Source: Fibrobacteria bacterium (GTDB lineage: Bacteria; Fibrobacterota; Fibrobacteria; UBA11236). From it: 19,667 bases of DNA. This document shows, piece after piece, positions 1 through 18,808 of the stretch; positions within the stretch are counted from its first letter, which is position 1, and each line of letters begins with the position of its first letter. A program made the position numbers and the translations under genes. The DNA lies in assembly GCA_043732185.1 (NCBI GenBank), contig JAYTHY010000132.1:1-19667 (forward strand). The letters are read 5' to 3'. A model generated the notes under the pieces. The model did no database searches. It saw only the letters and a list, made by a program, of their open reading frames with translations, and was not told the DNA's origin.

Positions 1-256
1 AAATTTTGATGACCCATAAAATCAACAAATCCCTTGCCTACATTGGCCTACAGGACATTTCGGTCGCTATTTCACCCACTCGATCGCCCGAAGAGCCAAT
101 ATTATTAACCTGCATACACTCCCGCACCTTGGCAAGCCAATCTCTCCTTTTTCACAAATTTAGAAACATTTGGCTTCGCCTTTATGCTGTTCATTTCTTT
201 AACCTGCGAATCCTAGACGTTCCCTTAAAGCTTGTTCCCAAGTTTTTTTGAGGCAT

Positions 257-274
257 TGTGATGGTGTGCACACC
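257..274. promoter_or_regulatory. Candidate regulator site upstream of intI (CRP/FNR-family-like box overlapping a 12-bp palindrome)
   Basis: TGTGA-tggtgt-GCACA (257-272) matches TGTGA-N6-TCACA at 9/10 positions. GGTGTGCACACC (263-274) is a perfect palindrome. Confidence 0.4.
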
Positions 275-402
275 TTCCTTTTTCAATTTGGATTTTATTT
301 AATCTTGGAAACGGCGAAAAGGTGTTTTTTGCTGGGGGTTTTTTGGATTGATACGTTGCGGGTCATTTGATTGAACCGCTATGGAAGGGATGGGGGTGGA
401 AG

Positions 403-1836
403 ATGGAGAATCGTGGGTCGTTCGTGGAGTTAGTGGGGAGGTATAGGGGTGTTTTGGCGTTGGAGTCTGGGATATCGGTTCATCATCGGGAATTTTATAT
501 CAAGTGGCTGTTGGATTATTTGTTTTTTTGTCGGCCGCGCGAATTGGCTATTTGTGAGTCGCACAACCTTCCGCCATTTACTGAGCATTTACGGAAAAGC
601 GGGAGGCTAGATTTTCAGATTAGGCAGGCTCAGGCTGCGGTGCGCTTGTACTGGATACGGTTTTGCCTATCCGATGAAAATCGTGGAAAAATTAAGGATT
701 CAGTTGAGGGTAGCCTTAACAGTAGAGGTGACGAGAAGCATAGGGATCGTGAACCGGATTCGGATTTGAAGGTGGGCAGGGAAACCAATTCGTTTTCGGA
801 TAATACAAGTTCTGTTCATTCTGGGCTTCCCAGTAGTAGGACCAAGGATCAGGTTGTTGCTTCGCATCAGGATGCGATGAGTTGGCATGTGGAGATGCAT
901 CGATTGCGCATGGAGATTAAGCTTCGTCATTATTCTGTTAAAACCTTGAAGGCGTATGTTTTTTGGGTGCGGACTTTTGCCAAGTATTTGAAAACTCGGT
1001 TGCCGGCGAGTTTGCGTGAGGAAGATGCAAAGAAATTTCTGGTTTATTTAGCGACGGAGGAAAAGGTTTCCGGTTCCACTCAAAACCAGGCTTTTAGTGC
1101 TTTGCTGTTTTTTTATACCAAGGTGCTGAGGCTTGAGTTTCGAGGCTTGCAGGATACGCCCAGAGCCAAATCCAGCATGACTGTGCCTACGGTGCTTTCC
1201 CGGAATGAAGTGCATTCGATTTTGGCGGAACTGGATGGTGTGCACAAAATATTTGCGCAATTGATGTATGGATGTGGGCTTCGGTTGGGTGAGGCTTTGA
1301 CGCTTCGGGTTCAGGATTTGGATTTGGATGCTGGGGGTCTAACTGTTTTTAATGGTAAAGGAAATAAGAGTCGCTGTTTGCCGTTGCCCAAGAAGCTGAT
1401 TCCGGCTTTGCAGATCCATCTTGATGAAATCCGGGTGCTTTGGGAAAGGGATTTGGCGGGAGGGTATGCGGGCGTTGTTATTCAAGATTCACTGACTAGG
1501 AAAATGCCTAATGCCGCTCGGGAGTGGCCGTGGCAGTGGGTTTTTCCTTCAACGCGATTGGTACTGATTGAAGGGGAAGGGAAATTTAGGCGCTTTCATT
1601 GGCATGAATCGATAGTCCAAAAAGAGTTCAAGCGAGCTGCGGGAGTTTTGCAGCTGAACAAACGGGTGACACCACATACGTTACGGCATAGTTTTGCTAC
1701 GCATTTGTTGCAGATGGGATATGATATTCGCACGGTTCAGGAACTCATGGGGCATAACGATGTGTCTACCACCATGATTTATACACATGCCGTACAATCC
1801 CTTTCCGGCAAAGTCATCAGCCCGCTCGATATTTAA
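403..1836 (+). CDS. intI: Integron integrase (tyrosine recombinase), long form with N-terminal extension
   Basis: IntI motifs: RHYSVKTLKAYVFW, VSGSTQNQAFSALLFFY, LMYGCGLRLGE (catalytic R), GKGNKSR (K), the IntI-specific insertion REWPWQWVFPS...RRFHWHES, HTLRHSFATHLL (HxxR), LMGH...TTMIYTH (H, Y) and C-terminal SPLD. The ORF opens at TTG 367; ATG 403 follows a G-rich SD-like stretch (ggggtgga) and is preferred. Confidence 0.96.
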   Translation: MENRGSFVELVGRYRGVLALESGISVHHREFYIKWLLDYLFFCRPRELAICESHNLPPFTEHLRKSGRLDFQIRQAQAAVRLYWIRFCLSDENRGKIKDSVEGSLNSRGDEKHRDREPDSDLKVGRETNSFSDNTSSVHSGLPSSRTKDQVVASHQDAMSWHVEMHRLRMEIKLRHYSVKTLKAYVFWVRTFAKYLKTRLPASLREEDAKKFLVYLATEEKVSGSTQNQAFSALLFFYTKVLRLEFRGLQDTPRAKSSMTVPTVLSRNEVHSILAELDGVHKIFAQLMYGCGLRLGEALTLRVQDLDLDAGGLTVFNGKGNKSRCLPLPKKLIPALQIHLDEIRVLWERDLAGGYAGVVIQDSLTRKMPNAAREWPWQWVFPSTRLVLIEGEGKFRRFHWHESIVQKEFKRAAGVLQLNKRVTPHTLRHSFATHLLQMGYDIRTVQELMGHNDVSTTMIYTHAVQSLSGKVISPLDI

Positions 1837-1851
1837 AGCGAACCGATTCTT

Positions 1852-4800
1852 TTAGGGCTCGGCGTCGTACGTATGAACGCCCATGCCCATGCGTTCCTTG
1901 CGTTTTTCCCATGAGTAATAGAACGTTGGCACCACTACCAGCACCAGCAAGGTGTTGAAGAGCAGACCCCAAAAAATTCCCCAGGCCATGGGTGCCCACC
2001 AAAGTGAGGATTCACTTTTCAGTTCGATGCCGAAATTGATAAAGTCGATGCCTTTTCCTGTGGCCATGGGTAGGAGTCCAATCATCGCGGTGATGGCGGT
2101 TAAGAGTACGGGGCGCAGCCGGGTCGCGCCGCCTTTAATTACCGCTTCGCGTAAGGGGGTGCCTTGCCTTCTGAGATGGTTGATGAAGTCGATAAGTACG
2201 ATGCCGTTTTTGGCCACCACACCTGCTAAGGCGATAATACCGATTCCCGTCATCATGATGGCGAAGGTGGTGTGCACGATGAGCAATCCCCAGAAAACGC
2301 CTCCCAAAGAAAGGATGATGCCTATTAGCACCAGGAAAGGTTGTAGCACGGAATTGAACTGGGCCACCATAGTTAGGAACACTAGGGATACGGCGATGAA
2401 GAAAGCGCGTTTTAGAAATGCTGTCGTTTCGTCCTGTTCTCGATTGCTGCTTCCGGACTGTATTTTGTATCCGGGAGGGGCGCTGATTTTGGCGATGAGA
2501 TCGGCGGAAGCTTTCTTCGCTACGCTTTCATCTTTGACACCTGGAGCCATTTCTGCCCAAACCTGGATGGTGCGGTCTCCGTTCAAATGGTTGATTTTGG
2601 CAAGGCTCGCGCCCTGGGTGATACGTACCATTGAGGTTAACGGCACTATCGTACCTTCGTGTGGCACCGTGATTTGATCAAGCCCGGAGAAGGATTCACG
2701 GGTTTTGGGATCGAGTCGGATCATCACATTGTATTCGTCTTTACCTTGCCGGTATTTGGCGGCTTCTATCCCGTGGATGGAGCCTCGCACGGCCATGGCC
2801 ACATCGGCAGTGGTGACGCCCATCAGCATCGCTTGTTCGCGGTCGATATCGACGCGCAGCTCCGGCCTCACGGGCTCATAATCCCAGTCAATGTTGACCA
2901 AGTTTGGAACGGTGCGCAGCTTGGCCTTGATATCCTCGGCCAGCTTGCTCAGCTCGGCAAAATCTTCGCCGGTTACTTCATAGGAAACCGGGAAACCTTG
3001 CGGTGGCCCTTCTTGCTGCTGCTTGACATTTACTTTCCATCCTGGCAAAAGGTCCTTGGAATGATTTTCCATCCACGTCATGGATTTCCAGGAGGACACC
3101 TTGCGTTCGTTATAATCCACAAAGCCAACATCAAGATAGGCCTTGTTCGATTCCGGGGTGCGATCCCCACCCATGGCTGTTTTTCCAAAGCCAACCACAC
3201 CAGAGAAACTTTCCACATCGGCGCTGTCTTCGGGCATGGTAAACATTCTTGCTTCGATGATTTTTAGAGCCGAATCCGTTTCGTTGATATCAATGCCCAG
3301 CGGACCTTCCACATCGACGGCTACTACCAGCGGATCGATTTTTGGGAAGAACACCACTCCGGTTCCAAATTTACCGTAAGCCATAATGCCGCCTACTACA
3401 AACATGACGCAGAACAGGGTGATTAACCAAGGATGCCGCAAGGCTTTATCCAGCACGCCGCTGTACCAATTCTTTACTTTTTCAAAACGTTCTCCGCCAC
3501 CCTCTTCCATGCCTTTGGCATTGGAGTTCATAAACAGAGAAGCAAATACTGGATTAAAAACAAATGCCACGAATAAGGATCCGGCCAAGGTAACCGATAC
3601 GGTAATCGGCAGATATTTGAAAAACTGACCCATCATGCCCGGCATTAACAATAGCGGAAGAAACGCAAATATCGTCGTCAAGGTGGCCGTCGCCACGGGT
3701 AACATCACTTCCTTGGTCCCATCCACCGCAGCTTGGGCTTTGGTTTTTCCCATTTGTAAATGCCGGTAAATATTTTCCACGACTACGATGCCATCGTCCA
3801 CCAGCATGCCTAGTCCTATGACTAAGGAAAACAGAACCACCATGTTCAGGGTAACGCCCATATAATCGAGCACCAAGAATCCCATCATCATTGAGAAGGG
3901 AATGGCGGTGGAGATGAAAAAGCTGTTGCGAACGCCGAGGAAGAAGGAAAGTATGAGTACGACTAGGACAAGACCGGTGAGAATATGGTTTTGTAATTCG
4001 CGCGCCATACGACGGATGGCAACGCTCTGATCGAATGTGTAATTGATATGGGTGCCTTCTGGCCAAGTGAGCCGCAGCTCTTCCACGGTTCTTTTGGCTT
4101 CATCGACAAGATCGACAATGTTGGAGCCGCCCCGTTTGGTGACGGCGATGGCCTGTGAATTCTTGCCGTGCAATCGGAATACGGTATTGCGATCCCGTGC
4201 ATATCCAAAATGGACATTGGCCACATCGCGAACGCGCACCAGGCTGGCGCCGCTTCCGCGCACTACCAGTTCGCCGAATTTATCGGGATCGGTGAGCTCG
4301 CCGGTTAACTGTACGGAAAATCGGCTGCCTCCCGCTTTGAGCGTGCCGCCCGGGATATTGCGATGCTGGCCTTGCACGGTTTTCATTAAATCATTAAGGC
4401 TAACACCGTATTGACGCAAGCGGGCGGGGTCGGCGTCGATGGCCACTTCTTTTTCCTGCTTGCCGGTGATGGTCGCGTCGAGAACGCCGGGAATGGATTT
4501 GACCTTGTCCTTGAGTTCTTCCACCAGTCGATCGAGTTTCTCGCTTTCATAGTCGCCGGATAGAGACATAACAAAGATTGGGATGTTGGAAAAATTGAGC
4601 TCTTGAACCATCGGTTCTTCGGCATCTGCAGGCAAGTCTGGTTTGGCTTCGTCCACCTTGTCCTTGACGCGGCGCAAAGCGGTTTCCACTTTCACATCGG
4701 CATTGAATTCAACCTGTATGGAACCGATGCTTTCTTTGGATTGGCTGGAAATCTTTTTGACTCCGTCCATTCCCTCGAGCTTGTCTTCGATTTTTTTGGT

Positions 4801-4983
4801 GACGGTTTTTTCAATGTCTTCCGGGGAGGCGCCTGGATAGACCACGTTGACAAAGATGAGGGGAATCTTCACTTCCGGGAAGGATTCCAAAGGCATGTTT
4901 TTATACGACATGGATCCGGCTAGGAGCAGGATAACCGCCAGCACGAGCACGGTGACGGGGTTTTTTACGGCAAACTTTGTCAT
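1852..4983 (-). CDS. RND efflux permease, AcrB/AcrD/AcrF family
   Basis: 1043 aa with a two-repeat RND layout. N-terminal FPEVKIP...YPGASPEDIEKTVT; TM4 GMLVDDGIVVVENI; TM10 VAKNGIVLIDF; TM11 RLRPVLLTA, so the proton-relay residues are intact. SD GGAG lies 7 nt before the ATG. Confidence 0.96.
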   Translation of the reverse strand: MTKFAVKNPVTVLVLAVILLLAGSMSYKNMPLESFPEVKIPLIFVNVVYPGASPEDIEKTVTKKIEDKLEGMDGVKKISSQSKESIGSIQVEFNADVKVETALRRVKDKVDEAKPDLPADAEEPMVQELNFSNIPIFVMSLSGDYESEKLDRLVEELKDKVKSIPGVLDATITGKQEKEVAIDADPARLRQYGVSLNDLMKTVQGQHRNIPGGTLKAGGSRFSVQLTGELTDPDKFGELVVRGSGASLVRVRDVANVHFGYARDRNTVFRLHGKNSQAIAVTKRGGSNIVDLVDEAKRTVEELRLTWPEGTHINYTFDQSVAIRRMARELQNHILTGLVLVVLILSFFLGVRNSFFISTAIPFSMMMGFLVLDYMGVTLNMVVLFSLVIGLGMLVDDGIVVVENIYRHLQMGKTKAQAAVDGTKEVMLPVATATLTTIFAFLPLLLMPGMMGQFFKYLPITVSVTLAGSLFVAFVFNPVFASLFMNSNAKGMEEGGGERFEKVKNWYSGVLDKALRHPWLITLFCVMFVVGGIMAYGKFGTGVVFFPKIDPLVVAVDVEGPLGIDINETDSALKIIEARMFTMPEDSADVESFSGVVGFGKTAMGGDRTPESNKAYLDVGFVDYNERKVSSWKSMTWMENHSKDLLPGWKVNVKQQQEGPPQGFPVSYEVTGEDFAELSKLAEDIKAKLRTVPNLVNIDWDYEPVRPELRVDIDREQAMLMGVTTADVAMAVRGSIHGIEAAKYRQGKDEYNVMIRLDPKTRESFSGLDQITVPHEGTIVPLTSMVRITQGASLAKINHLNGDRTIQVWAEMAPGVKDESVAKKASADLIAKISAPPGYKIQSGSSNREQDETTAFLKRAFFIAVSLVFLTMVAQFNSVLQPFLVLIGIILSLGGVFWGLLIVHTTFAIMMTGIGIIALAGVVAKNGIVLIDFINHLRRQGTPLREAVIKGGATRLRPVLLTAITAMIGLLPMATGKGIDFINFGIELKSESSLWWAPMAWGIFWGLLFNTLLVLVVVPTFYYSWEKRKERMGMGVHTYDAEP

Positions 4984-4995
4984 GGATAGACTCCC

Positions 4996-5043
4996 TGTAA
5001 ACTTTTTACACCCCGGCAGCGCCTAGTGTTGGAACCGGGTTCC
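4996..5043. repeat. Two short inverted repeats in the MFP-RND intergenic spacer
   Basis: TGTAAA-ctt-TTTACA (4996-5010) abuts the SD of the RND gene. GGAACC-g-GGTTCC lies at 5031-5043. Confidence 0.5.
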
Positions 5044-5070
5044 TGTTTAATACTGGACCTGAGTTCCTAT

Positions 5071-6144
5071 TTAAAACTGAACCGGGGTTCCAGTGGACAC
5101 CTGGAAGGCGCCAACGGTGATGAGCATGTCACCCACTGTTAGGCCTGCTTCCACGACCACAGAATCACCCGAAGCGGGGCCCAGGTTTACCGGCACTTGC
5201 ACGGCCTTGCCATCTCTAACCAACATGGCCATGGTGCCATCTTGCAACCGCAAAATTGCCGTCGAGGGCACGACCACAGCTTGAGCATATTTTTTCCGAA
5301 GGATCCGTGTGCGGCCTACCATTCCCGGTCGGAGTACGTTGCCGGAGTTGGGAATGTCGATGCGGGCCATCACGGTGCGGTTCTTGGCTTCCACAGCGCG
5401 GTCAATGCTTTTGAGTTTGCCGGAAAAAGTCCGAGCGGTATCTTGTACCTGACTGAACTCGGCGCTTTGGCCTTCATGAAAATCGCGGGCTTCCGCTTCC
5501 GGAATCGAAACCACGGCCTCTAAACGTGACGTTGCAGCCAGACGCACGGTGGGTTGGCCCGGCGCCACGGTTTGATAGCGTTCGATCATACGACTGACCA
5601 TCACCCCACTAAAAGGTGCCTGACAGCGACTGTCTTCATAGGCCCGCTGCGCTTGCAGCATGGCAACGCGCGCTTGCTGGAAGCCAAACTCCGCCTGATC
5701 TTTTACGGCTTTGCCTACAAAACCTTTTTCCACATTCACTTTTTGCCGATCGACTTCTCCATTGGCCACTTCCACCGCGGACTTGGCTTGCATGAGCATA
5801 GCCAGGTAGCGATCGCTTTCGATATTGCACAGAGCTTGACCCGCTTTCACGGCCTTGCCCACTTCTACCACGCTGGCTACGCGTCCGCCTTGCATGGGGG
5901 CGGCCAAGGTGGCGTCATCGGAGCCGCGCAAATCTGCGCTGTAATTGCCCCAATCTTCAAAGGCGTGAGCGGAGACGGCAACCGCCACCACGCGAATCGA
6001 AGCTTTTGCGGCAGACGATGCATCTTTGCCGTCCTTGTCTGCACCAGCTTTCTTTTTTTCGCAGCCGACCAAAGTCAGAGTGGCAGTAAGTGCCAGCGTA
6101 GCGGCCAAGGCCAAGGTGATTGATTTTGTGGTAGAGAAATTCAT
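5071..6144 (-). CDS. RND periplasmic adaptor (membrane fusion protein), predicted lipoprotein
   Basis: Lipobox LVGC after a hydrophobic signal. Lipoyl/hairpin motifs G..VKAGQAL and QAPFSGVM, then LRPGM and VVVPSTAI. SD GAGGAG. 4-nt overlap with the tolC-like gene. Confidence 0.95.
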   Translation of the reverse strand: MNFSTTKSITLALAATLALTATLTLVGCEKKKAGADKDGKDASSAAKASIRVVAVAVSAHAFEDWGNYSADLRGSDDATLAAPMQGGRVASVVEVGKAVKAGQALCNIESDRYLAMLMQAKSAVEVANGEVDRQKVNVEKGFVGKAVKDQAEFGFQQARVAMLQAQRAYEDSRCQAPFSGVMVSRMIERYQTVAPGQPTVRLAATSRLEAVVSIPEAEARDFHEGQSAEFSQVQDTARTFSGKLKSIDRAVEAKNRTVMARIDIPNSGNVLRPGMVGRTRILRKKYAQAVVVPSTAILRLQDGTMAMLVRDGKAVQVPVNLGPASGDSVVVEAGLTVGDMLITVGAFQVSTGTPVQF

Positions 6145-7463
6145 GGAGTCTCCTCGTTAAGCAAACTTTTACCCAAAGCCAGACGCAGCGCCGCGCGGGA
6201 TCGCACACTGGCATAGCGTGCGCCTAATACACCCAAGGACGCTTCTCGCAGGGATTGTTCCGCATCCAAAAGATCCGTAAGCTGACCCTTGCCGGAACGG
6301 AATTCCGAAGTGACCATGGCTTGCGCTTCTTCTGCAGCGAGTACAGCTTGTTCGGCTGCGGCTAGCGCGGAGTCGGCGGCTTTGTAATCCATATACGCAC
6401 CGCCGATTTCCACCACCGTCAATTTGCGGATTTGCCTGGCCGTTAACCCTAGGGTGCGAGATTCCGATTCCACTTGCTGGGCCTTGGCAGCAAGCGTAAA
6501 GCCGTCAAAAATCGGCCAACGCAAACCAATGCCGATTTGCCATTCATGATTTTTTGCGATATCGCCCAACTGTCTTGTTTTGAAAGCCGTAATACCGTAT
6601 TTCCCTTGCGCGCCCAGTGAAGGCAGATACAACATGCGCAAATATTTTGCTTGCCCTTCTAGAGATTGGCGGTTCAGCTCCATCGATTTTAAGTCAGGCC
6701 TATCGTCGAGAATTGTTTCCATGGCCTTGGCATCGGGAATTGCACCCATGGCAGCGAGCTCCAGGGTTGCACTTTCATCCAGCTCGATGGGCGCATCCAC
6801 TTCCCTACCTAGAATCCGATTTAGAAACATGCGGGCGCCTTCCGCATCGCGTTCGGCATGGATACGCTGTGGTTCCAGGGATTTCAGCGCGGTTAATGCA
6901 CGCAGCACATTGGAGCGGAGGCCCGAACCCATTTTGAAATTGCTTTCCAGAAAAGCCTGCGTTTCCCTGGCTCTTTGTTCGGAGGCTTGCAGGGTTTTCA
7001 GGCGAGCGCGGGAGTTGATCAAGTTGTAATAGGCATCGAGTACTTGCAGTTGCAATTGCTGTACCGAACGCCGCCGCGAAGCAGTTTCGGCATTTTCCTG
7101 TATATTGGCCACTTTGACAACTTGGCTGAGCCTGCCAAAAGAAAACAGGGATTGCTGAAATTCCACATCCCAAGCGAAGCGGTTTTGCTCGACATTAAAA
7201 ACGGACATGGAGTCACTTCCGCCAAAGGGAAACACGGAGGGATCCACTGCGCTCGCGCCTCTGCCAACATTGGCGTTGGCGGTGATTTGCGGATACGCGC
7301 TGGACCAGGCTTCGCGTTTGAGGGCCTCGAACTTTTTCTTTTTTTCTTGGAGGATCAAGGCCTCTTCGCTCTTGGACAAGGATTCGCGGATGGCCGCTTC
7401 CAGGGTCAAGGGCGTGGTCCCGGAGGAAAAGGAAAGGGCAAGGCAAAACAGACTATTTAACAT
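6141..7463 (-). CDS. TolC-family outer membrane efflux protein
   Basis: 440 aa. LTLEAAIR start, two OEP repeats (AYPQIT.../YLPSLG...), QVLDAYYNL, RPDLK, WPIFDG, G.G.LTDLLDAE. Lies between the TetR and MFP genes. Confidence 0.94.
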   Translation of the reverse strand: MLNSLFCLALSFSSGTTPLTLEAAIRESLSKSEEALILQEKKKKFEALKREAWSSAYPQITANANVGRGASAVDPSVFPFGGSDSMSVFNVEQNRFAWDVEFQQSLFSFGRLSQVVKVANIQENAETASRRRSVQQLQLQVLDAYYNLINSRARLKTLQASEQRARETQAFLESNFKMGSGLRSNVLRALTALKSLEPQRIHAERDAEGARMFLNRILGREVDAPIELDESATLELAAMGAIPDAKAMETILDDRPDLKSMELNRQSLEGQAKYLRMLYLPSLGAQGKYGITAFKTRQLGDIAKNHEWQIGIGLRWPIFDGFTLAAKAQQVESESRTLGLTARQIRKLTVVEIGGAYMDYKAADSALAAAEQAVLAAEEAQAMVTSEFRSGKGQLTDLLDAEQSLREASLGVLGARYASVRSRAALRLALGKSLLNEETP

Positions 7464-8157
7464 GGTATTCCGTCCTGGCTTTATCGGTGAGCAAACCCTG
7501 AAACAAGACTTTGACTACGGTGTCAAAGACCTGATTGGGTTTAAAGGGAAGTTCCGAAAGAACTTGCGGATTGAGGATATCCCGCAGCACATGGGCATAG
7601 ATGAGCACAAAAAGTCTTTCGTCCACATCTTTACGGAAGTGGCCTTTTTGCCGCCCTTCCTTGATCAAAGCGCCAAAGTGCGTATTCAAACACGCCTGCC
7701 GTTTGCTTTCAACCTGATTCCAGATTTCCGGGGCATGGCGCTGCAAATCGTACAGCAAAGCGCCGCTCATTTTGGCATAAAGAGCCGTCAAATAATTCAG
7801 ATAACGTTTGAGCTTCGTTAAAGGATCGACGCCTTCCTGCCTACAAATGGCAGTCAGCTCCTGATCGCATTCCTCCAGATGAACACGGGTGACTTCCTGA
7901 AGCAGTTCCTCCTTGCTGGGAAAGAAACGATACAGGGTTTTTTTGCTCATGCCCAACCGCTCGGCAGTTTCGTCCATGGTGACTTGGCTGAAACCCAGGC
8001 GAAAGAAAAGTGCCTGTGCCTCCAGCAAAATGCGTTGCTTGGTATCCACATCGGATTTTGTAGCCGCGATTTTTCTGGGCGTACTTTTTCTGGGCGTACC
8101 TTTGCTGGGAGTGATTTTGGAGCCTGCCGTTTTGGAAGAAGCAAGTATGGCTGTCAT
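7453..8157 (-). CDS. TetR/AcrR-family transcriptional regulator with basic N-terminal tail
   Basis: TKQRILLEAQALFFRLGFSQVTMDETAERLGMSKKTLYRFFPSKEELL is a TetR HTH. First gene of the efflux operon, overlapping tolC by 11 nt. Start is ATG 8157 (GGAAG upstream) or 8172. Confidence 0.95.
   Translation of the reverse strand: MTAILASSKTAGSKITPSKGTPRKSTPRKIAATKSDVDTKQRILLEAQALFFRLGFSQVTMDETAERLGMSKKTLYRFFPSKEELLQEVTRVHLEECDQELTAICRQEGVDPLTKLKRYLNYLTALYAKMSGALLYDLQRHAPEIWNQVESKRQACLNTHFGALIKEGRQKGHFRKDVDERLFVLIYAHVLRDILNPQVLSELPFKPNQVFDTVVKVLFQGLLTDKARTEYHVK
8070..8114. repeat. In-frame 15-bp tandem repeat in the 5' end of the tetR gene
   Basis: TTTTTCTGGGCGTAC occurs twice exactly (8070-8084, 8085-8099), followed by a degenerate third copy CTTTGCTGGGAGTGA (8100-8114). 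It encodes ITPSK-GTPRK-STPRK. Confidence 0.85.
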
Positions 8158-8183
8158 AGGGCTTCCAAACATCCTTAGAAACG

Positions 8184-8384: not shown

Positions 8385-8849
8385 ATGCAGAAGGAAATCG
8401 TGGTCGATACCAGCGTCATTCTGGATATTCTCGTAACCTCCCGGCCTGGTCATAAATTTGGCAAACTTATTGGCGTCTATCTTATCGACAATGGTATCAA
8501 AATCAAAGTGCCCATGCACGCCATGTTTGAAATTAAGTCCGGACTGCTACATGCCAAAAAAACAGCCGTCGATCAGGGGGCTTCCCTTAAAATAAACGAA
8601 GATATCAGCGAGTCCACACCCTTGCAATACGATTTCCTTCCTATCGACACTGCCTTCTTTGCAAAATATTTCGATGCGGAATTGCCGTATATCAAGGCCG
8701 GAGATTACATGAACGTGGCCGTGGCCAAAGTGGATGGACTAATTCTTTTGACGGAAGACCCCACGCAGTATACCGCGGCTCTGACCGCTGGCGTTACAGT
8801 CTATACATGCGAGGAGTTTCGGAAAATATGTCTCAACGCACTGCAATGA
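8385..8849 (+). CDS. PIN-domain protein (VapC-like ribonuclease)
   Basis: IVVDTSVILDIL (first Asp), MFEIK (Glu), IKAGDYMNVAVAK (Asp) and LILLTED (Asp) give the PIN acidic quartet in the expected order in 154 aa. Confidence 0.85.
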   Translation: MQKEIVVDTSVILDILVTSRPGHKFGKLIGVYLIDNGIKIKVPMHAMFEIKSGLLHAKKTAVDQGASLKINEDISESTPLQYDFLPIDTAFFAKYFDAELPYIKAGDYMNVAVAKVDGLILLTEDPTQYTAALTAGVTVYTCEEFRKICLNALQ

Positions 8850-8862
8850 CGGGCCGATTCGC

Positions 8863-9069
8863 ATGACCGCGTCTCAAGCCTTTGTCTGGGTCTTTTTCGG
8901 ATTTGTCGGAATGGGCTATTGCTATTCGGGCAAGCGACGCGGGAATGGCCGCCTGTTTCTATGCGGATTGGCGCTGGGCATCTTCCCCTATTTCGTGCAT
9001 GCGATAATTCTTCAATTCTTAATTGGACTAACGCTTACCGCGTATCCTATCGTGTTTCGAAATAGCTAA
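8863..9069 (+). CDS. Small hydrophobic membrane protein of unknown function
   Basis: 68 aa, mostly hydrophobic. The pattern FG.vG.GY..sGK....L.CGLAL..FPYFV resembles, from memory, a widespread conserved small hypothetical family. Starts 13 nt after the PIN stop. Confidence 0.75.
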   Translation: MTASQAFVWVFFGFVGMGYCYSGKRRGNGRLFLCGLALGIFPYFVHAIILQFLIGLTLTAYPIVFRNS

Positions 9070-9097
9070 TCGCTATTGGAAATACACACAGGACAGT

Positions 9098-10477
9098 TTA
9101 TGCGTCCAGGGTAGGAGTATCGTCCATCTTGGCTTCCAGCTGAACGGAAATTCCGTTTTTCTTCATCATATCGTATAAAGTGGGGCGCGTAAGGCCGGTA
9201 ACCTTGGCGGCATTGGAGATATTTCCCTTGGCCTGTTTGAGAGCGTTGAGCAAAAAGTTTCGATCGAACATTTGCCTGGCGTCGCGATAGGAAAGCACGG
9301 TAAAGGAGGTTTCCGAAAGCTGCAAGTCGTCGCATTCGATGACCTGCGAGGAACACATGATGGAGGCGCGGTTGAGCTTGTTTTCCAATTCGCGCACGTT
9401 ACCGGGCCAACTATAGTTCAACAGCATTTGTTCCGCCCGCTTGCTCAGTTTGAGACGAGCCTGGTTGAACTTGGTTCGGTTGTTCTCAATGATTTTATCG
9501 GCGATAAGCAGGATGTCGTCTTTCCGATCGCGCAGCGGCGGCAAGGTGATCTCGAATTCGCTTAGGCGATAGTAGAGATCGGTGCGCATGGCGGAATTGT
9601 CCTTGTCGGACAGATTGGTTTTGTTGGTGGCGGCGATGATGCGGACATTCAAAGAACGGAAAGTGGTCTCACCCACGCGTTGCAGTTTTTGATCTTGTAG
9701 AAAGCGTAGCAGCTTGACCTGCAGGGCCATGGGCATGTCGCCGATTTCATCCAAAAAGAGTGTGCCCTTGTGGGCGGATTCAATCAGGCCCATCTTGTCC
9801 GTATTGGCTCCCGTAAATGCGCCGCGCACATATCCGAAAAGCTCAGCCTCAATCAAGCTGGCAGGGATGGATCCGCAATTGATGGGCACAAATATTTCAT
9901 TACGACGCTGGCTGTGGAAATGCACGGCCCGGGCGCAAAGTTCCTTGCCGGTACCGCTTTCACCCGTGATCAAAACGCTCACATCGGTGGCGGCCAATTT
10001 ACGGATATTTTCAAAAATCTTTTTCATCGGCTCGCTGCGGCCAATCATCAGGTCGTCTTTATCGCTCGGGAGGCCACCGGTTTCGGTTTTTTCCGTAACG
10101 GGTTTTTCCAACGTGATCAGTCGGCAGGCCCTGGCGAGAATCACTTTGAGTTCATCGATATCCACTGGCTTGTGCAAATAATCGAATGCGCCCCGCTCAA
10201 TAGCCCGGTTGCCTAGGTCCGCATGCATATTGGAGGTGATGACGATGATTTTGGCCATGCGGTCTTCACTGAGAACGGCATCGATGATTTCCAGACCCCG
10301 TTCCGGTTTGTTCTCAAGACCCATATCCAGACAGATGAGGCCTGGACATTGTTTGCGTAGGTTTTCCAGGCAACCGGCCAGAGTTTCACTTTCAAGAATT
10401 TCATAATCGGCATTGAGAGCCCATTTCATTTGCTCCCGCAGCCCGATATTGTCTTCGACCAGCAACAGTTTGATCAT
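9098..10477 (-). CDS. prsR: PEP-CTERM-box response regulator, sigma-54-dependent (REC-AAA+-Fis HTH)
   Basis: MIKLLLVEDN.GLREQMKW, phospho-acceptor in CLDMGL, Walker A GESGTGKE, GAFTGA, Walker B LFLDEIG, WPGNVRELEN, HTH GNISNAAKVTGLTRPTLYDMMKK. Directly downstream of the prsK-like gene. ATG 10477 is preferred over TTG 10534. Confidence 0.9.
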   Translation of the reverse strand: MIKLLLVEDNIGLREQMKWALNADYEILESETLAGCLENLRKQCPGLICLDMGLENKPERGLEIIDAVLSEDRMAKIIVITSNMHADLGNRAIERGAFDYLHKPVDIDELKVILARACRLITLEKPVTEKTETGGLPSDKDDLMIGRSEPMKKIFENIRKLAATDVSVLITGESGTGKELCARAVHFHSQRRNEIFVPINCGSIPASLIEAELFGYVRGAFTGANTDKMGLIESAHKGTLFLDEIGDMPMALQVKLLRFLQDQKLQRVGETTFRSLNVRIIAATNKTNLSDKDNSAMRTDLYYRLSEFEITLPPLRDRKDDILLIADKIIENNRTKFNQARLKLSKRAEQMLLNYSWPGNVRELENKLNRASIMCSSQVIECDDLQLSETSFTVLSYRDARQMFDRNFLLNALKQAKGNISNAAKVTGLTRPTLYDMMKKNGISVQLEAKMDDTPTLDA

Positions 10478-10536
10478 GCGCGATCCCGTTTTGAAAGGAG
10501 TGAACTGAAAACGAAGGGAAAGATACTCATCCAAAT

Positions 10537-12717
10537 CTATCCAGCGTCGCTTTTACCCGTCAATAAAATGCAGAATTCCGTGCCCGCACCGGGCTCGCTA
10601 TGGCACAAAATGCGCCCACCCATTTTTTCCACCAGCGTCTTGCATTGATAGAGGCCGATGCCCACACCTTTTTCCTTGGTGGTGGCAAAGGGTTGGAAGA
10701 GCCTGCTGCGCACGAATTCCTTTTCCATGCCCATGCCATTGTCTTCAACCAAAATGTACGCGCCATAGCTGGCGAAAAACCGATCCCCACCGCCGAAGAG
10801 CGTTCGCAAGCGGTCCGGCACCTGCGGGCTTAGCGAGCCGTAGGATAAAGCGATGCGCGTCCTATCGCTTTTGTCCTGCATGGCTTCAAGGGCATTGTTG
10901 ATGAGGTTGCGAACCACAAAAAACAGGGACTTGCGGTCCATGGACACGGCTTCTGCATCTGCCCCGCTAAAGCTGAAGTCCATTCCCGGCAATGCGGACA
11001 AGCCGGAATTGGCAATCACCTCTTCCAACAGTGGACGCAAGGGCGCGAAAGCCAGTTCGAGCACTTCGCGTTTTGGCCCCACGGCCAGCCTGTCGATGAG
11101 GCTTTGCAAATTTACCGCGCAGCTGTTCACGGATGTCAGCATGCTGGCTTGGAAGGACGCGTTGCCGATATTGCGTTCAGCATTTTTAAGCAACAGATTT
11201 AAAGTGGCAATTTGGTTTTTGATGTCATGGATGATGAAGGACGCAATATGGTGGAAAGATTCAAATTGCTTGAGCTCAATACGCTCGTTTAAAACCCGGT
11301 TTTTGAAAAGCACATCTCCAATAGATGTTGTAAAGACGGCGATGAGGTCGAGATCCTCGCTGTCAAAAGCGTCTGCGCGCCCGCCCTGTAAGGCCAGAAA
11401 TCCAACCAACCGGTCTCCGATAAAAATGGGAAAGATAGCGTCGATTTTAAGTTCGGATAACAGCGGCTCTTCCAAGGCTGACTTTCGCCTGGCTTGGCCG
11501 CCAACGTCATTGGCCAGCAGATCCACGGGATGTCCCTCTTGAGACAGCATGCGCGCCAGCGGGCTATCGCCGCTGATGATCAATCCGCGCTGCGTGGACT
11601 CTTCCTTATTTTCATGTTGGTAAAAATTCCCGTCCTGCCAATTCAGAATAAAACAGTAAGCGTCGTCCACGGTAACCGAATACTTCATGTTCTCGACCAG
11701 TTCCGTAAGCGCAGAATCCACGTCGGCTCCCGCCATGGCGGTTTTGTGGAGTCGGAAGAATTGATCCTGATAGTCGTACTTGCGGGAATAAAACTGCTCG
11801 TTTACAAATCGACTGATGCGCTTGCGCATGGTTCCGGATCCCAAGACCAGAACCGCCAGAAAGCACAGTGAAAAGCCCATCAAGAACCGTTCGAAATAGG
11901 AAAAGTCGAGGTGCATCCATTGAAACACGAAAATGGTCAACGCTACGCCAAGAAAAGCCGCTCCCGTCAAAAAAACCGTGGCCGAAGTGTAAACAGTATC
12001 CCGGGGAATGGATATGCGTTCCGAGCCTAGACGATAGCGCAGAAAGCCCGCCAACACCACCGGATAGGTGACTCCATAAAGAACGGAAGAGGCTTCGGCG
12101 AAGTGGGCGGGAAGCACACGATATAAAAGCACATGGGCAAAGTAGAGGAGATGGAAAAGGGACAGACAACCTAGGCCGATAAAGCACAGCCGCGCGATAC
12201 GGCGCTGATAGGCCTTGGAATACCGATAGGTGCTCTCGAGCAGATAGAGCGTATAGATGGCCAGCAAAGCGCGCAGGGTTGGCACGCAAAGGCCCAGGCC
12301 TTCAAAGCGAACCAGAGGGGTGGCCACATCACCTGCAGGTACCAGGTTTCCTGGTATTCCAAGCAAAATGAAACCGGCCACGGCTCCAATAACCGATAGG
12401 GTAAACAAGGAGATCCGCCATCTGCCCCAAGTCCACCCCGGTTCCAGCTCCCCGCCCCGCAAGAAATGCCGCGTCAACTCCAGTAATGCGACGGCGATGA
12501 GCAATCCCAGAATCTGGAGCACCTTTTGATAGTGAAACCAGTCTAGTGGTGAGGCGGAGAAAAGAGCCAGGTAAGAAATCCACAGATGGGCGACAAAAAG
12601 CCCACCTAATCCTAACAGCACCAAGCGCAGGGATTTTTGATAGGATTTGAACTGAACTAGGAAACCGAGGGCCAGATTAAGGGCCGTGCCAACAGTCAAG
12701 AAGGTTAGAATCAACAT
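10537..12717 (-). CDS. prsK: PEP-CTERM system sensor histidine kinase
   Basis: Multi-TM N-terminus, FYSRKYDYQDQF linker and GAF-like region. QFESFHHIASFIIHDIKN.IA.L.LLLKNAERNIGN..FQ matches the PrsK-type H-box. NLINNALEA, DNGMGM, LFQPFATTK and GVGIGLYQ form the HATPase. Exosortase locus context. Confidence 0.9.
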   Translation of the reverse strand: MLILTFLTVGTALNLALGFLVQFKSYQKSLRLVLLGLGGLFVAHLWISYLALFSASPLDWFHYQKVLQILGLLIAVALLELTRHFLRGGELEPGWTWGRWRISLFTLSVIGAVAGFILLGIPGNLVPAGDVATPLVRFEGLGLCVPTLRALLAIYTLYLLESTYRYSKAYQRRIARLCFIGLGCLSLFHLLYFAHVLLYRVLPAHFAEASSVLYGVTYPVVLAGFLRYRLGSERISIPRDTVYTSATVFLTGAAFLGVALTIFVFQWMHLDFSYFERFLMGFSLCFLAVLVLGSGTMRKRISRFVNEQFYSRKYDYQDQFFRLHKTAMAGADVDSALTELVENMKYSVTVDDAYCFILNWQDGNFYQHENKEESTQRGLIISGDSPLARMLSQEGHPVDLLANDVGGQARRKSALEEPLLSELKIDAIFPIFIGDRLVGFLALQGGRADAFDSEDLDLIAVFTTSIGDVLFKNRVLNERIELKQFESFHHIASFIIHDIKNQIATLNLLLKNAERNIGNASFQASMLTSVNSCAVNLQSLIDRLAVGPKREVLELAFAPLRPLLEEVIANSGLSALPGMDFSFSGADAEAVSMDRKSLFFVVRNLINNALEAMQDKSDRTRIALSYGSLSPQVPDRLRTLFGGGDRFFASYGAYILVEDNGMGMEKEFVRSRLFQPFATTKEKGVGIGLYQCKTLVEKMGGRILCHSEPGAGTEFCILLTGKSDAG

Positions 12718-12723
12718 GGAAGT

Positions 12724-15270
12724 TTAGGCTGACGGCATTTCGTTCTTGCCGGGCCCATAGTAATAGGAATATTGCGTGTAACGGTTCTGGATGAAAGGTG
12801 AGGACTTGAGCCCATTGAGCACGGCCGCCACTTTAACACCGCGCTCCTCCAATATTTTTACCGCTTCCAACGAATCACTGATGGACGTGTTTCCGGAGCG
12901 GCAAATATAAATGACCCCGTCTGTGACTTCCGCCAAGGAGAGCGGCTCGGGCGTAATCATAACCGGTGGCGTATCGATGAGAACAATATCGAATTGCTCC
13001 CGGGCCAAACGGATAAAGGCTTTAAATCGATCGGAGCTGACCATTTCACCGGCATTGGGATTGAATTTTTTCCTCGGAACCACAACTAGATTCCGCTGCA
13101 TGGTGGGCTGAAAACACAGGGTGACGGTTTCCATGAATTGCTCATCACTCAAATCCGTTTGGCTTAAAAGTTCATCCAGTCCCGTGGTTCCCGGTAAATT
13201 AAAGACCTTATCCACCCGGCCTAACCGGAAGTCCGCGTCCACCAACAGAGTCCGTTTTCCCTTGCGGGCAAAGGTCATGGCCAGATTGCTGGTAATGATG
13301 GTTTTGCCTTCGCTAGGCTGGGTGGAGGTGACCATGAGGCAGCATTTCCCTGCCCGGGTATTGCGGAAAAAGTTTTCCGCTTCTTCGCGTATCACGCGAA
13401 AGGCTTCCAAATCTTCTACACGATAGGCTTTACCGTAAAACAACAACAAGGGATCGGGCGGCAATGCAGGAGGCTGGGCATTAAGGTCCGCCACCGGCTG
13501 CTGCTCCACTTCGGCCTCTCCCTCCGAATTTTTCTTGGCATGGCGCGGATTTTTTTGGGGTGCCTTGGTTTTCTTGTCTTTAATTTTTGCGTTGGCATTA
13601 GGGTTGAAAGCGATGGCGCCGAGCACTTTCATTTCCAATAAATTACTGATGTCTTCTTTGGTCCACACCTTGAGAAAGAAAACATGCCAAAGCAATAATA
13701 AGGCCGGCACAAGAATCGACAAAATCAATTGTGCAGCGGCCGCAATTAATAGTCGCGTCCAGAGGGTTGGTTTTTTATAAATGGCAGGCCGAGCCGGATC
13801 CACCACTGTCACCTTGAAAAATTCCGAACCCGTCATAAGCTTGGCCCGATTGTAACTCTCTAGAAGATGGTCATAGATTTGCTGGCTTTGAGAGTTGATT
13901 TGGGTCAATCGTTCCAGCTCCAATTGCAGTTTCACAGGAACCTGCGCAACCCGAGTAGGGGCAGAGTGCGAAGCGCGAACCCGCGCATCTCCCAAATCCT
14001 TTTCCAATTTTTGCGTCAGCGATGCCACCACTTTATCAATTTGTGCATAGAGGGTGTCTCTTTGCAATGCCAACTCCGCCACCTTTGGATGTTCCGGACC
14101 CAAAGTGCTTTTATAAGTCGTCGACTTGGCATTCAGAGTCGATAAAGTGCCACGCAAAATAACAGCCTTGGGTTCATTGGCCTGCATCATGGTTTGAACC
14201 ATTTCCGCGCCCCAGTAAAAAAGCTCGTCTTCCGATCCACCAATCGGTTTTGCTTGCGAAACGCTTTTGATCTGCTGGAGGGTTTTACTAATCCTATCCA
14301 ATTCCTGCCGCGATTCCAGGTAGGTGAGATTGTCTCCCGGTTCAGGAGCGGTTTGACTGCGCATCAATTCTGGATGCACCTCGTAGAAATTGGAGACATC
14401 GGCCTGGCTTACATCGAGTTTTTTCTTGGCTACATCCAAATCCTTTTCCATCTGAACCAAGATTCCCACGTCTTGCACTTCGGTAGTGCCGTAATAGACT
14501 TCCAGGAACTGGGCCCGAAGGGAATTGAGGATTTCTGCAATAAAATCCGGATCGCGATCCTTTAGTTTTACTTCAAGATTGTTGCTGCCCAAAGATCGGA
14601 CCTTGGTCGCATCGCGGAAACCCTCCACCGTCTCTTCGATGGACAGAAATTCCATTTCCAGTTTGAGCCCAGGATGCTCCTGAAACACGCCCTCATTTAA
14701 CACCAATTCCAATCCATTGATGCTGATGCGATTATCAGCCGGGATTGGGCCTTTGAAAAGGTTGTACTCTCCGTTAGCCTCCTTGGGCTTGTAAGTCAGC
14801 GTGGCTTGCCGACTCCCTTTTTCGATTTGCAGAACATACTGTCCTTGTCCCAGGTCTTCGCTATACGTAACGCTTTTAAAAACTTTTTTCTGGAAAACAT
14901 CATGCGTGGTTATGCGCATACGCAAGCTGAGTTTCCGGATGGTGGCTTCCAAAACCTGCCAGCTATTGATGATCCCCAGAATACTTTCTCGCTGGGTAAT
15001 GGCCACGTCGCGCATAACATTGGTTTGAGCGCCTACCACATTTGGAAAACGAAGCACTGTGGTAGCTGAGTAGGAACGGGGAATATCGAAAATGGAGAGC
15101 AACACACCGGAAGGAATTGCCAACAGGAGCCATACTAACAGCACTAGCCATTTCTTTAGCCAGAAAATATGTAACAACGTGGATACCGAAGGGATTTTTG
15201 GCCCTGCAGCACGCGTTTCCCCAGACGTTTCGCGAGCGTTTCTACTTCTATTGGTTTCGTTTAGAGTCAC
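12724..15270 (-). CDS. wzc: Polysaccharide co-polymerase / tyrosine autokinase (Wzc-like, fused form)
   Basis: Two TM segments flank a coiled-coil periplasmic region (GPEHPKV, VVDPARP). Walker A TSTQPSEGKT, A' LLVDAD, B VLIDTPP and a C-terminal Tyr cluster RYTQYSYYYG. The GTG start is uncertain. Confidence 0.92.
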   Translation of the reverse strand: MTLNETNRSRNARETSGETRAAGPKIPSVSTLLHIFWLKKWLVLLVWLLLAIPSGVLLSIFDIPRSYSATTVLRFPNVVGAQTNVMRDVAITQRESILGIINSWQVLEATIRKLSLRMRITTHDVFQKKVFKSVTYSEDLGQGQYVLQIEKGSRQATLTYKPKEANGEYNLFKGPIPADNRISINGLELVLNEGVFQEHPGLKLEMEFLSIEETVEGFRDATKVRSLGSNNLEVKLKDRDPDFIAEILNSLRAQFLEVYYGTTEVQDVGILVQMEKDLDVAKKKLDVSQADVSNFYEVHPELMRSQTAPEPGDNLTYLESRQELDRISKTLQQIKSVSQAKPIGGSEDELFYWGAEMVQTMMQANEPKAVILRGTLSTLNAKSTTYKSTLGPEHPKVAELALQRDTLYAQIDKVVASLTQKLEKDLGDARVRASHSAPTRVAQVPVKLQLELERLTQINSQSQQIYDHLLESYNRAKLMTGSEFFKVTVVDPARPAIYKKPTLWTRLLIAAAAQLILSILVPALLLLWHVFFLKVWTKEDISNLLEMKVLGAIAFNPNANAKIKDKKTKAPQKNPRHAKKNSEGEAEVEQQPVADLNAQPPALPPDPLLLFYGKAYRVEDLEAFRVIREEAENFFRNTRAGKCCLMVTSTQPSEGKTIITSNLAMTFARKGKRTLLVDADFRLGRVDKVFNLPGTTGLDELLSQTDLSDEQFMETVTLCFQPTMQRNLVVVPRKKFNPNAGEMVSSDRFKAFIRLAREQFDIVLIDTPPVMITPEPLSLAEVTDGVIYICRSGNTSISDSLEAVKILEERGVKVAAVLNGLKSSPFIQNRYTQYSYYYGPGKNEMPSA

Positions 15271-15371
15271 AATGGCTTGCCGGATGATAAGTTATTATTA
15301 AAATTTAACTCTTTTCTAAGAATTTCGGCCTCACACTCGGTTTTGGAAACCTACAAACGACAAGCAGCCCC
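15271..15371. promoter_or_regulatory. AT-rich divergent promoter region between wzc and the TPR gene
   Basis: 101-bp spacer between divergent operons with an AT-rich core (ataagttattattaaaatttaact). Individual promoter elements cannot be assigned. Confidence 0.45.
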
Positions 15372-17288: not shown

Positions 17289-17291
17289 AAG

Positions 17292-18143
17292 ATGACTGGA
17301 AACTCCATCCTGGTCGCCATGCTAGCCTTAGTGGGCTGGAATTATTGGCCCACCTTAAAGTGGATGGAGATGCGCTGGGACGAGCCGGAGTCCTATATGA
17401 CCCACGGCTGGCTCATTCCCTTTGTCACCGTATGGCTCCTATGGATGGAACGCGAGAGAATAAAAGCGGCCCCCGCTTCCCCTTCTCGCCTCGGTTTTTT
17501 TCTGATCGCCGGTGCCTTGCTTTTTCACATCGTGGCCGGACTTGCCGATGTGTCCTCGATTTCAGGACTGACGGTAATTCCCGTGCTACTCGGCATAGTC
17601 TTGCTGCGCTATGGCATGCCCACTTTTAAAATCGTGTGGTTCCCGATCTTTTTTCTCATCTTCATGGTGCCGCCGCCGGAGTTCATCATCAGCACCATGA
17701 ACTTTGCGCTAAAACTTAAAGCTGCAGACTTGGCCACCTTTCTGCTCGACGCCACCGGTCTACCGTCCATACGCCAAGGCTCCTTCATGATGTTCGGTGA
17801 AGAAAAGCTGGCCATCGGCGACGTATGCTCGGGACTGCGGAGCTTGTTGTCTTTACTCTCCTTGAGCGTGCTCTATGCGTACCTCATCCGTGATAAAGGC
17901 AAGGCCCATGTGATTGGCATTCTACTCACCGGCATTCCCGCCGCCATTATCGGAAATGGAATTCGCATTTTCATGGTCGCGTATCTGGTGACCTGGTTTG
18001 GTACAAAAACCGTTTTCAAACCCATCATCGGAACTTGGGATCTGCACCTGTTTACCGGAGCCATTATTTTTGTAGCTGCCTTCGGCTGTCTGTATCTGGT
18101 CAACTTTATCCTCGATCGCGTTTCGCAAAGTAAGGCATTATGA
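17292..18143 (+). CDS. xrt: Exosortase (EpsH family) membrane transpeptidase
   Basis: W...ESYMTHGWLIP, FPIFFLIFMVPPP, and catalytic Cys in DVCSGLRSL, Arg in GNGIRIF, His in DLHLFTG. About 8 TM segments. Confidence 0.96.
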   Translation: MTGNSILVAMLALVGWNYWPTLKWMEMRWDEPESYMTHGWLIPFVTVWLLWMERERIKAAPASPSRLGFFLIAGALLFHIVAGLADVSSISGLTVIPVLLGIVLLRYGMPTFKIVWFPIFFLIFMVPPPEFIISTMNFALKLKAADLATFLLDATGLPSIRQGSFMMFGEEKLAIGDVCSGLRSLLSLLSLSVLYAYLIRDKGKAHVIGILLTGIPAAIIGNGIRIFMVAYLVTWFGTKTVFKPIIGTWDLHLFTGAIIFVAAFGCLYLVNFILDRVSQSKAL

Positions 18144-18781
18144 AGCCGGGTCAGCTAAAAATATGGACCGGACTCACCCTCGCCCTCCTGGCCCTTTCGA
18201 CGTGGTTGTCCAATGGTGTGCTATTCAAGCAAGTGGTGCACACGGATTCCAACTTGGCCCAGCTTATTCCCTCCACTCTCGGTCCCTGGAAAGAAATCCA
18301 ATCCAGCCCAGCCACAGCTAGTGAAATTCGAGGTTTGGAAACCCGCGATATCATCAAACGCACCTATTCCAATGGTGCACAATATATCGAACTGGTTGTG
18401 GCCTATATCGCACAGAGCAATCGCAAATCCGCTCATGCCCAAGAGGCCTGCCTGCGTGGGTCCGGGGCGTTGGTTGGAAGCGTCAATCGCGTCCACTTGC
18501 ACAACCTGCCCATCGATGCCAAAGCCATTTCCATCGACAACGGAAGCAACCGCTCCTTTGTGTATTACTGGTATAAAATCGGAACGGTGTATACTGCCGA
18601 CTATCTCAAATCCAGCTTCCAAATGTTTTTTGGCGGGCTAGTAGGAAAGAAAACGCATGGCGCCTCTTTGATACGGCTTTTGACGCCTACCAACAAAAGC
18701 GAAACCGAAGCGACCATCCAAGAGCGCATCGAGGATTTCAGCCGCTTTTTGCTCCCGGAACTTGAAAAAAATCTGCCGTAG
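18140..18781 (+). CDS. epsI: EpsI-family exosortase-associated protein
   Basis: N-terminal TM, then IPSTLGPW, RTYSN, AHAQEACLRGSG (H..E.C..G.G), VYYWY and GASLIRL. ATGA overlap with the exosortase gene. Confidence 0.9.
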   Translation: MKPGQLKIWTGLTLALLALSTWLSNGVLFKQVVHTDSNLAQLIPSTLGPWKEIQSSPATASEIRGLETRDIIKRTYSNGAQYIELVVAYIAQSNRKSAHAQEACLRGSGALVGSVNRVHLHNLPIDAKAISIDNGSNRSFVYYWYKIGTVYTADYLKSSFQMFFGGLVGKKTHGASLIRLLTPTNKSETEATIQERIEDFSRFLLPELEKNLP

Positions 18782-18808
18782 AGGTGTTTGAGCTTTCCGT
18801 TTTTACCG

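Follow-up and report, generated by a model that had tools for sequence, protein, structure and literature searches.

A diverged second core-binding-like domain predicted ahead of the integron integrase core in a Fibrobacteria bacterium

The contig JAYTHY010000132.1 of a Fibrobacteria bacterium (GCA_043732185.1) encodes an integron integrase (IntI) in which approximately 160 residues precede the point where the canonical protein begins, and the question raised by this locus is what these residues are and what they might do. The window analyzed here is the complete contig of 19,667 bp, one of 139 contigs of a genome of 4.46 Mb. As shown in Table 1, the product of intI has 477 residues, which bears out the length given in the original prediction made from the DNA letters of the window. 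The length of the extra part was estimated from the fact that the matches of the core to TIGR02249 and Pfam begin only at residue 166; about 147 to 165 residues stand ahead of the canonical IntI core. Judged by its architecture alone, the protein is very probably a core similar to that of the Vibrio cholerae integrase VchIntIA, preceded by a diverged duplicate of the core-binding (CB) domain on a disordered linker of variable length.

The identity of the core was determined from sequence models, solved structures, and predicted structures. Residues 166–476 matched the NCBIfam model TIGR02249 'integron integrase' with 375.9 bits, where the cut-off is 265, and covered model positions 3–313 of 315. 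In the Pfam scan of the 477-residue protein, Phage_int_SAM_4 (PF13495) was assigned to residues 166–245 and Phage_integrase to residues 264–463. The closest solved structure by sequence was VchIntIA (2a3v), with an E-value of 5.9e-70 over query residues 169–475, and the IntI-specific segment at query residues 353–405 was aligned to it without gaps. The full-length AlphaFold2 model had a predicted local distance difference test score (pLDDT) of 87.6 and a predicted template-modelling score (pTM) of 0.67, and the Foldseek comparison of this model with 2a3v_A gave an E-value of 2.4e-23, a TMt of 0.83, and 38% identity. The residues R294, K322, H425, R428, H451, and Y460, which we take from known motifs to be the catalytic residues of a tyrosine recombinase, are all identical to the aligned residues of VchIntIA; across 109 long IntIs, five of them are invariant and K322 is nearly so. 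Because the evidence from TIGR02249, Pfam, 2a3v, and the catalytic residues agrees, the core is read as an ordinary, apparently intact integron integrase.

Two further observations concern the core. The tryptophan W161 (positions 883–885), located just ahead of the canonical IntI start and outside the TIGR02249 match, is Trp in 105 of the 109 long IntIs and may be a contact or interface specific to the long form. In the comparison with the congener G008 (L016), which is 97% identical, the synonymous divergence of the catalytic domain was 0.28, whereas that of the N-terminal domain, linker, and CB domain was only 0.02–0.06, which suggests that the intI gene is recombinant (mosaic).

The N-terminal block could not be read as a duplicate of the CB domain from pairwise similarity alone, because BLASTP of residues 1–96 against residues 159–256 gave no alignment at E ≤ 100. 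The Pfam and NCBIfam scans of residues 1–158 gave no family match, and residues 1–96 alone scored 12.6 bits on PF13495 (E = 0.19), which is below the gathering score of 27 bits. The HMMER search with residues 1–158 against 1.84 billion representatives gave 48 proteins at E ≤ 1e-3, all of which matched over residues 1–95, and the matching block started within the first 39 residues in all 48 homologues. The N-terminal block was the best PF13495 stretch in 16 of the 48, and in 8 of these 16 its score was at or above the gathering score; two PF13495 stretches were listed in 7 further homologues. Of the two SAM-like domains that the original prediction expected from a profile scan, the N-terminal one reaches the gathering score in 8 of the 48 homologous blocks and not in the protein of the window. 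In the longer members of the 48, the order is the N-terminal block, the canonical SAM_4 domain, and Phage_integrase.

The relationship between the two domains was evaluated using hhalign, with 50 N-terminal blocks on one side and 15 canonical CB domains taken from the same proteins on the other, the two sets being kept apart. A jackhmmer run on a small local set merged the two families; its E-values were not used, and the profiles were kept separate. The two profiles aligned with a probability of 92.6%, an E-value of 4.4e-7, and a score of 39.4 over 70 columns. As controls, shuffling the columns of the CB alignment 60 times gave scores with a mean of 10.9, a standard deviation of 2.1, and a maximum of 19.2, and the reversed alignment scored 10.6. 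The register was the same as the one drawn by eye in the original prediction, with GISVHHREFYIKWLLDYLFF over HYSVKTLKAYVFWVRTFAKY and QIRQAQAAVRLYW over TQNQAFSALLFFY. The most conserved columns common to the N-terminal and CB domains were Y32/Y185, W35/W188, Y39/F192, F59/F212, and L63/L216, and the further conserved ones were Q75/Q229, A76/A230, A79/A233, and L82/F236. The hallmarks of the N-terminal family itself are W35, F42, C43, F59, Q72, Q75, A76, and A79. The ESM Atlas look-up of the N-terminal domain led to PF13495 clusters at 0.95–0.97.

The fold of the N-terminal domain was examined using an AlphaFold2 model of residues 1–100 built from a 75-row alignment, with a pLDDT of 88.2 and a pTM of 0.79. 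The predicted helices at residues 4–20, 26–43, 53–65, and 70–94 form the same pattern as those of the CB domain in the full-length model. In the VIA-align comparison with 48,161 chains, the top match was residues 2–86 of VchIntIA (2a3v_A), with a root-mean-square deviation of 2.7 over 82 aligned residues and a Z of 10.6; according to the note of VIA itself, helical bundles may give a Z near 10 by chance, and for this reason the fold match counts only alongside the profile evidence. The next ranks were XerA, XerD, the N-terminal domain of a haloarchaeal integrase, Brujita Int, Cre, and the CB domain of lambda Int. The eight best matches were all CB domains of tyrosine recombinases (Z from 10.6 to 7.3), and the first unrelated chain appeared at rank 9 with a Z of 6.9. 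On these profiles and models, residues 1–95 derive from an ancient duplication of the SAM-like CB domain and have diverged strongly, and the proposal of a tandem SAM-like duplicate on a disordered tether is supported by the sequence profiles, the CB fold of the model, the conservation, and the dN/dS values given below.

The two domains are joined by a linker, which the original prediction described as polar and about 70 residues long. The linker is real and predicted to be disordered; however, its disordered core amounts to about 41 residues rather than 70, because the pLDDT falls below 50 only at residues 106–117 and 119–146, between extensions of the neighboring helices. In relatives, the linker varies from 3 to 194 residues and is rich in S, P, A, G, and T.

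The occurrence of the long form was examined in several sets of sequences. The N-terminal domain lies upstream of the CB domain in 115 of 122 close homologues (the best 120 of the search and a few others), a proportion that is not a frequency because the ranking of homologues favors long forms. The profile of the N-terminal domain gave at least 77 matches among 8000 candidates of a protein set, a number that implies no family size. In a sample of 296 genomes from the phylum of the window, this profile matched in 54 genomes, and TIGR02249 exceeded its cut-off at 60 places in 53 genomes. At 49 of these 60 places, a match to the N-terminal domain adjoins IntI on the same contig, as paired by us; the other 11 consist of 7 in open frames of at least 408 residues, 3 that are clearly short (333, 350, and 368 residues), and 1 truncated by the end of its contig. 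Among 72 IntI open reading frames (ORFs) of wide taxonomic range from named genomes, only 7 had the N-terminal domain at 25 bits or more, and these belonged to Nitrospiria, Desulfobacteraceae (two), Acidobacterium, two metagenome-assembled genomes of Gammaproteobacteria, and one further bacterium. The named carriers include members of Fibrobacterota, Nitrospirota, Thermodesulfobacteriota, KSB1, Thermotogota, and Acidobacteriota. At two loci, G023:C1:7665-10354 and G278:C96:4829-7093, one has two tandem long intI genes and the other has a long intI beside a short one.

The phylogeny of the long IntIs was determined from the cores. The FastTree analysis of 137 cores, 66 long and 71 short (taking every second row dropped 53 of the 119 long rows), placed 61 long and 8 short forms in one clade with a support of 97, and 63 short and 5 long forms in another; several of the 'short' rows inside the long clade are truncated gene calls. 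In the IQ-TREE analysis of 30 long and 28 short cores, 2 changes of state were found. The approximately unbiased (AU) test, for which the group was named after the first tree, does not reject the placement of all long forms in one clade (p = 0.507), so that a single origin of the long IntIs is not rejected by the sequences compared. These trees, with one main long clade, agree with the accessible text of Nemergut et al. (2008; PMC2426708), where the IntIs of the deltaproteobacterial clade 15 are explained by one gene fusion event. According to that text, the clade 15 proteins are about 120 residues longer, and a length rule had classed their genes as pseudogenes; the fused part is not named there. 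The statement in the original prediction that long IntIs are known from environmental bacteria without a functional account of the extra domain matches this source and our literature search, in which, subscription-only papers aside, no paper identifying the extra domain or testing its function was found. Within this literature, no published account appears to recognize the fused part as a duplicate of the CB domain. The protein of the window is one member of a large class of integron integrases, noticed before but uncharacterized.

The region in front of intI was compared with that of two congeners. The alignment is conserved from about position 95 to 402, and the sequences are unrelated to the left of about position 97. 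On the minus strand, both congeners read AATATTG/TTAGAC at the junction (the slash marks the crossover), with divergently oriented, putative cassette ORFs beyond it, and G008 has a second GTTAGAC after the first ORF. Because this junction coincides with the break in similarity, the boundary at 97/98 is read as the crossover of the integron attachment site attI. The same junction (97/98 in the window, 9251 in L016, and 4706 in L017) is filled by three sequences, namely, the end of an insertion sequence (IS) in the window, TTAGAC... in the two congeners and run X4, and TTATAC... in run X3. Since three sequences occupy one crossover in related strains, cassettes would therefore turn over there in nature; this is the sole, indirect sign of recombination, and it suggests that integrons with long IntIs are active in nature.

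The terminal stretch of the IS recurs at about 10 'end A' and about 10 'end B' contig ends of the genome, and 8-bp AT-rich target duplications pair the contigs that flank the IS. The depth of the IS contig is 200–600, compared to 13 elsewhere. An ORF in one copy showed weak matches to the ISL3 zinc-ribbon and helix-turn-helix families (16.7 and 11.9 bits, below the cut-off). The binned genome was searched for the other flank of the IS and for the cassette array, and neither was found; the contig ends within the IS.

The intergenic region contains the direct repeat GCAGGTTAA in two copies. Since chance alone would produce about 0.3 exact 9-mer pairs in 400 nt, the pair is weak evidence of binding boxes. 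A perfect 12-nt palindrome, GGTGTGCACACC, is located at 264–275 in the conserved spacer between attI and intI; it is partly kept in the congeners and may be an operator. No sigma-70 promoter was found in the scan of positions 90–1900, and the Rfam scan of the whole window gave no match.

Table 1. Features of the window analyzed (positions in the 19,667-bp contig).
Feature	Position	Strand	Description
Terminal 97 nt of a multi-copy IS ('end A')	1..97		24–26 nt terminal inverted repeat at 72–97
Conserved attI-to-intI intergenic region	98..402		Crossover at 97/98, minus strand ...AATATTG/
Presumed 8-bp IS target duplication AATATTAT	98–105		At the crossover side of the intergenic region
Direct repeat GCAGGTTAA, copy 1, candidate integrase-binding box	105..113	-	8 nt from the crossover; repeat search
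Direct repeat GCAGGTTAA, copy 2, candidate accessory box	199..207	-	94 nt nearer intI; repeat search
intI, long integron integrase	403..1836	+	477 aa and stop codon, ATG at 403; TIGR02249 and 2a3v matches
N-terminal CB-like (SAM-like) four-helix domain	403..687	+	aa 1–95; profile, model, and dN/dS evidence
Linker	688..843	+	aa 96–147; helix extension to about aa 104, then a disordered polar stretch
Canonical CB domain	844..1158	+	aa 148–252; helices 148–174, 179–196, 206–218, 224–241
Catalytic domain	1159..1833	+	aa 253–477; IntI-specific segment at about aa 353–405; R294, K322, H425, R428, H451, Y460

The remainder of the contig begins with an RND (resistance-nodulation-division) efflux operon on the minus strand at 1852–8172, convergent with intI, which consists of an AcrB-like pump, a membrane-fusion protein, an outer-membrane factor, and a TetR regulator and is ordinary chromosomal context. 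The region of 8385–19505 contains a PIN-domain gene, a sigma-54 response regulator with a GAF histidine kinase, a large ParA-like protein, a TPR protein, the exosortase EpsH with DUF3485, and a PEP-CTERM protein.

As for the role of the extra domain, the core would recombine attI with attC and attC with attC, like the IntIs studied so far, and the extra domain would act as a second, tethered nucleic-acid-binding head. The DNA recognized by this head would be lineage-specific and lie in or close to attI, whether as accessory boxes or as the cognate attI; its binding would concentrate integrase locally at attI and bias the assembly of the synapse or its direction. The analogy, with the arm-binding domain found in lambda-type integrases and the accessory sites DR1/DR2 of attI1, is purely functional. 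The CB-like fold, the positive charge, and the flexible, variable tether make plausible the accessory DNA binding near attI that was put forward in the original prediction. The mean net charge of the N-terminal domain is +3.7, compared to +4.3 for the CB domain (n = 120). The mean pairwise identity is 27.7% for the N-terminal domain and 48.7% for the CB domain, which corresponds to an approximately twofold faster divergence, as a reader of lineage-specific DNA might show. According to the accessible text of PMC2095811, attI is recognized solely by its cognate integrase, and according to that of PMC8946536, the supplementary binding sites DR1/DR2 of attI1 favor attI1 x attC recombination, while attIA has none. 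Taken as a whole, the combination of the long IntI architecture with a tethered DNA-reading head for lineage-specific DNA at attI is proposed tentatively, as a reading whose probability falls a little short of one half. The more specific form, in which the duplicated CB domain would be dedicated to reading the double-stranded cognate attI or adjacent boxes and the canonical CB domain would handle the structure-specific folded strand of attC, is considered doubtful.

Several results weigh against this proposal. The CB-conserved residues K180, K183, R190, K199, K210, S225-T226-Q227-N228, K243, and K244 are not kept in the N-terminal domain, which has its own hallmarks K34, F42, C43, and Q72 instead. 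By analogy with other tyrosine recombinases, these CB positions probably touch DNA, and because they are lost, any DNA binding by the N-terminal domain would differ from the CB mode. In 14 long-IntI loci, the 357–450 nt upstream of intI (with approximate start codons) were searched for GTTRRRY and direct 9-mers, and no shared motif was found. The repeat GCAGGTTAA is conserved with one change in relatives, and the exact pair occurs only in the window. The end of the IS abuts the attI crossover and separates the R box from the remainder of attI, and this interruption makes the present activity of the integron in this genome uncertain. As for the fold, besides the chance level of Z for helical bundles described above, the Foldseek search with the N-terminal domain gave nothing at E ≤ 0.001; the leading ranks were all tyrosine recombinases, but with E-values of 0.2 or weaker.

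The loss of the basic and polar positions of the CB domain, while the hydrophobic core is kept, would also fit a CB-like domain that binds protein instead of DNA. The domain may dock on its own or a neighboring core as a CB mimic that gates the entry of DNA, or it may add contacts between subunits that stabilize or restrict the tetrameric synapse. The N-terminal domain of lambda Int modulates the activity of its core, and the near invariance of W161 in the long forms is a hint of an interface specific to them. However, linkers of 3–10 residues and of up to 194 residues both exist, and this range makes one fixed intramolecular dock awkward. In addition, the N-terminal domain retains a positive net charge, and the pTM and pLDDT of the full-length model, which are not measures of inter-domain confidence, give no sign of a confidently fixed N-terminal domain. 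Protein binding is therefore regarded as unlikely, though it deserves to be taken seriously.

Less probable again, and in our judgment improbable, is that the N-terminal domain is a vestige of an old internal duplication that is tolerated and slowly decaying without a present function. The domain diverges about twice as much as the CB and catalytic domains, stops are found within the N-terminal block in some relatives (G293, G292, and G110), and some short forms nest in the long clade (8 of 69 rows, several of which are the truncated gene calls). These observations would fit decay; however, the selection data fit poorly with it. In the comparison with a congener of 82% protein identity, residues 1–100 and 156–477 were conserved and residues 101–155 had diverged. 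The ratio of non-synonymous to synonymous divergence (dN/dS), determined using the Nei-Gojobori method, was lowest in the catalytic domain (0.035), followed by the CB domain (0.09), the N-terminal domain (0.17), and the linker (0.62), where dS was about 0.7 (0.68 for the N-terminal domain); a second value for the linker was 1.25. The value of the N-terminal domain is thus far below that of the linker in the same gene. W35, Q75, and A76 are nearly invariant across the 109 long IntIs, and F42, C43, F59, and A79 are nearly invariant in the 75-row set. Most members of a large clade that spans several phyla have kept the domain. The conservation of the block among homologues, which the original prediction had made decisive for its claim, is thus found both in its occurrence and in its dN/dS, and, as judged from codon comparisons, the N-terminal block is translated and selectively maintained.

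The same selection data fit poorly with the last alternative, that the N-terminal 158 codons are untranslated and the real start is the ATG at 877 (M159), the alternative start named in the original prediction, with the upstream frame open by chance or the start mis-called; although AGGA sits 4 nt ahead of this ATG, such a start is extremely improbable, since purifying selection acts on the protein sequence of the N-terminal block, the homologues of the block are confined to the N-termini of proteins of this kind, the column of M159 holds Q, P, or A, with any Met within the 15 residues before W161 in only 15 of 109 long IntIs, and the reading frame stays open across a freely diverged linker.

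The proposed DNA-reading head can be compared with known systems. VchIntIA (IntI4, 2a3v) and IntI1 resemble the protein of the window in the core formed by the CB and catalytic domains, in the catalytic residues, and in the IntI-specific segment, and the congeners of the window have a divergent attI with a putative cassette array. However, VchIntIA and IntI1 have 320–337 residues and one CB domain, whereas the protein of the window has about 147 extra N-terminal residues consisting of a second CB-like domain and a linker. To our knowledge, mechanistic studies of integrons, and the one structure solved among them, have all used short integrases such as these two. The long IntIs of clade 15 differ in that their fused part is not named in the accessible text of Nemergut et al. 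(PMC2426708), whereas here it is assigned to a duplicated CB domain and the clade reaches other phyla.

The heterobivalent integrases, such as lambda Int and those of Tn916/CTnDOT (PMC8138268, accessible text), likewise have an extra N-terminal domain tethered to the CB and catalytic core, and reading accessory DNA near the core site could be a common role. However, these integrases have an arm-binding fold, whereas the predicted N-terminal domain of the window protein is all-helical and matches CB domains, including that of lambda Int itself (2oxo, Z = 7.3). In the accessible part of Smyshlyaev et al. (2021; PMC8138268), integron-like recombinases are filed as 'simple', with only CB and catalytic domains. 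The TnpR (Tn4401) subgroup in the same source is also a group of 'simple' tyrosine recombinases with an N-terminal helical domain (DUF3701), which is suspected to bind DNA; DUF3701 is a different domain family, and the Pfam scan of the window protein listed no DUF3701. If the long IntIs are heterobivalent integron integrases whose two CB-like domains divide the labor between attI and attC, the balance of insertion and excision could be controlled through that division.

The phylogeny that the original prediction asked for gave a single main clade of long IntIs. The form described here is not peculiar to one contig: it is that of at least 49 of the 60 integron integrases found in the phylum of the window, and it recurs in several other phyla. 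For annotation, the length rule that once classed long intI genes as pseudogenes (Nemergut et al. 2008, PMC2426708, accessible text) is one hazard, and a gene caller that favors an internal start could clip such genes. If the N-terminal domain reads DNA, it could explain the recognition of attI and the directionality of recombination in chromosomal integrons outside Proteobacteria. If the division of labor between the two CB-like domains is true, the extra domain would represent the first arm-like layer of control in integrons, one shared by most integrases of several environmental phyla.

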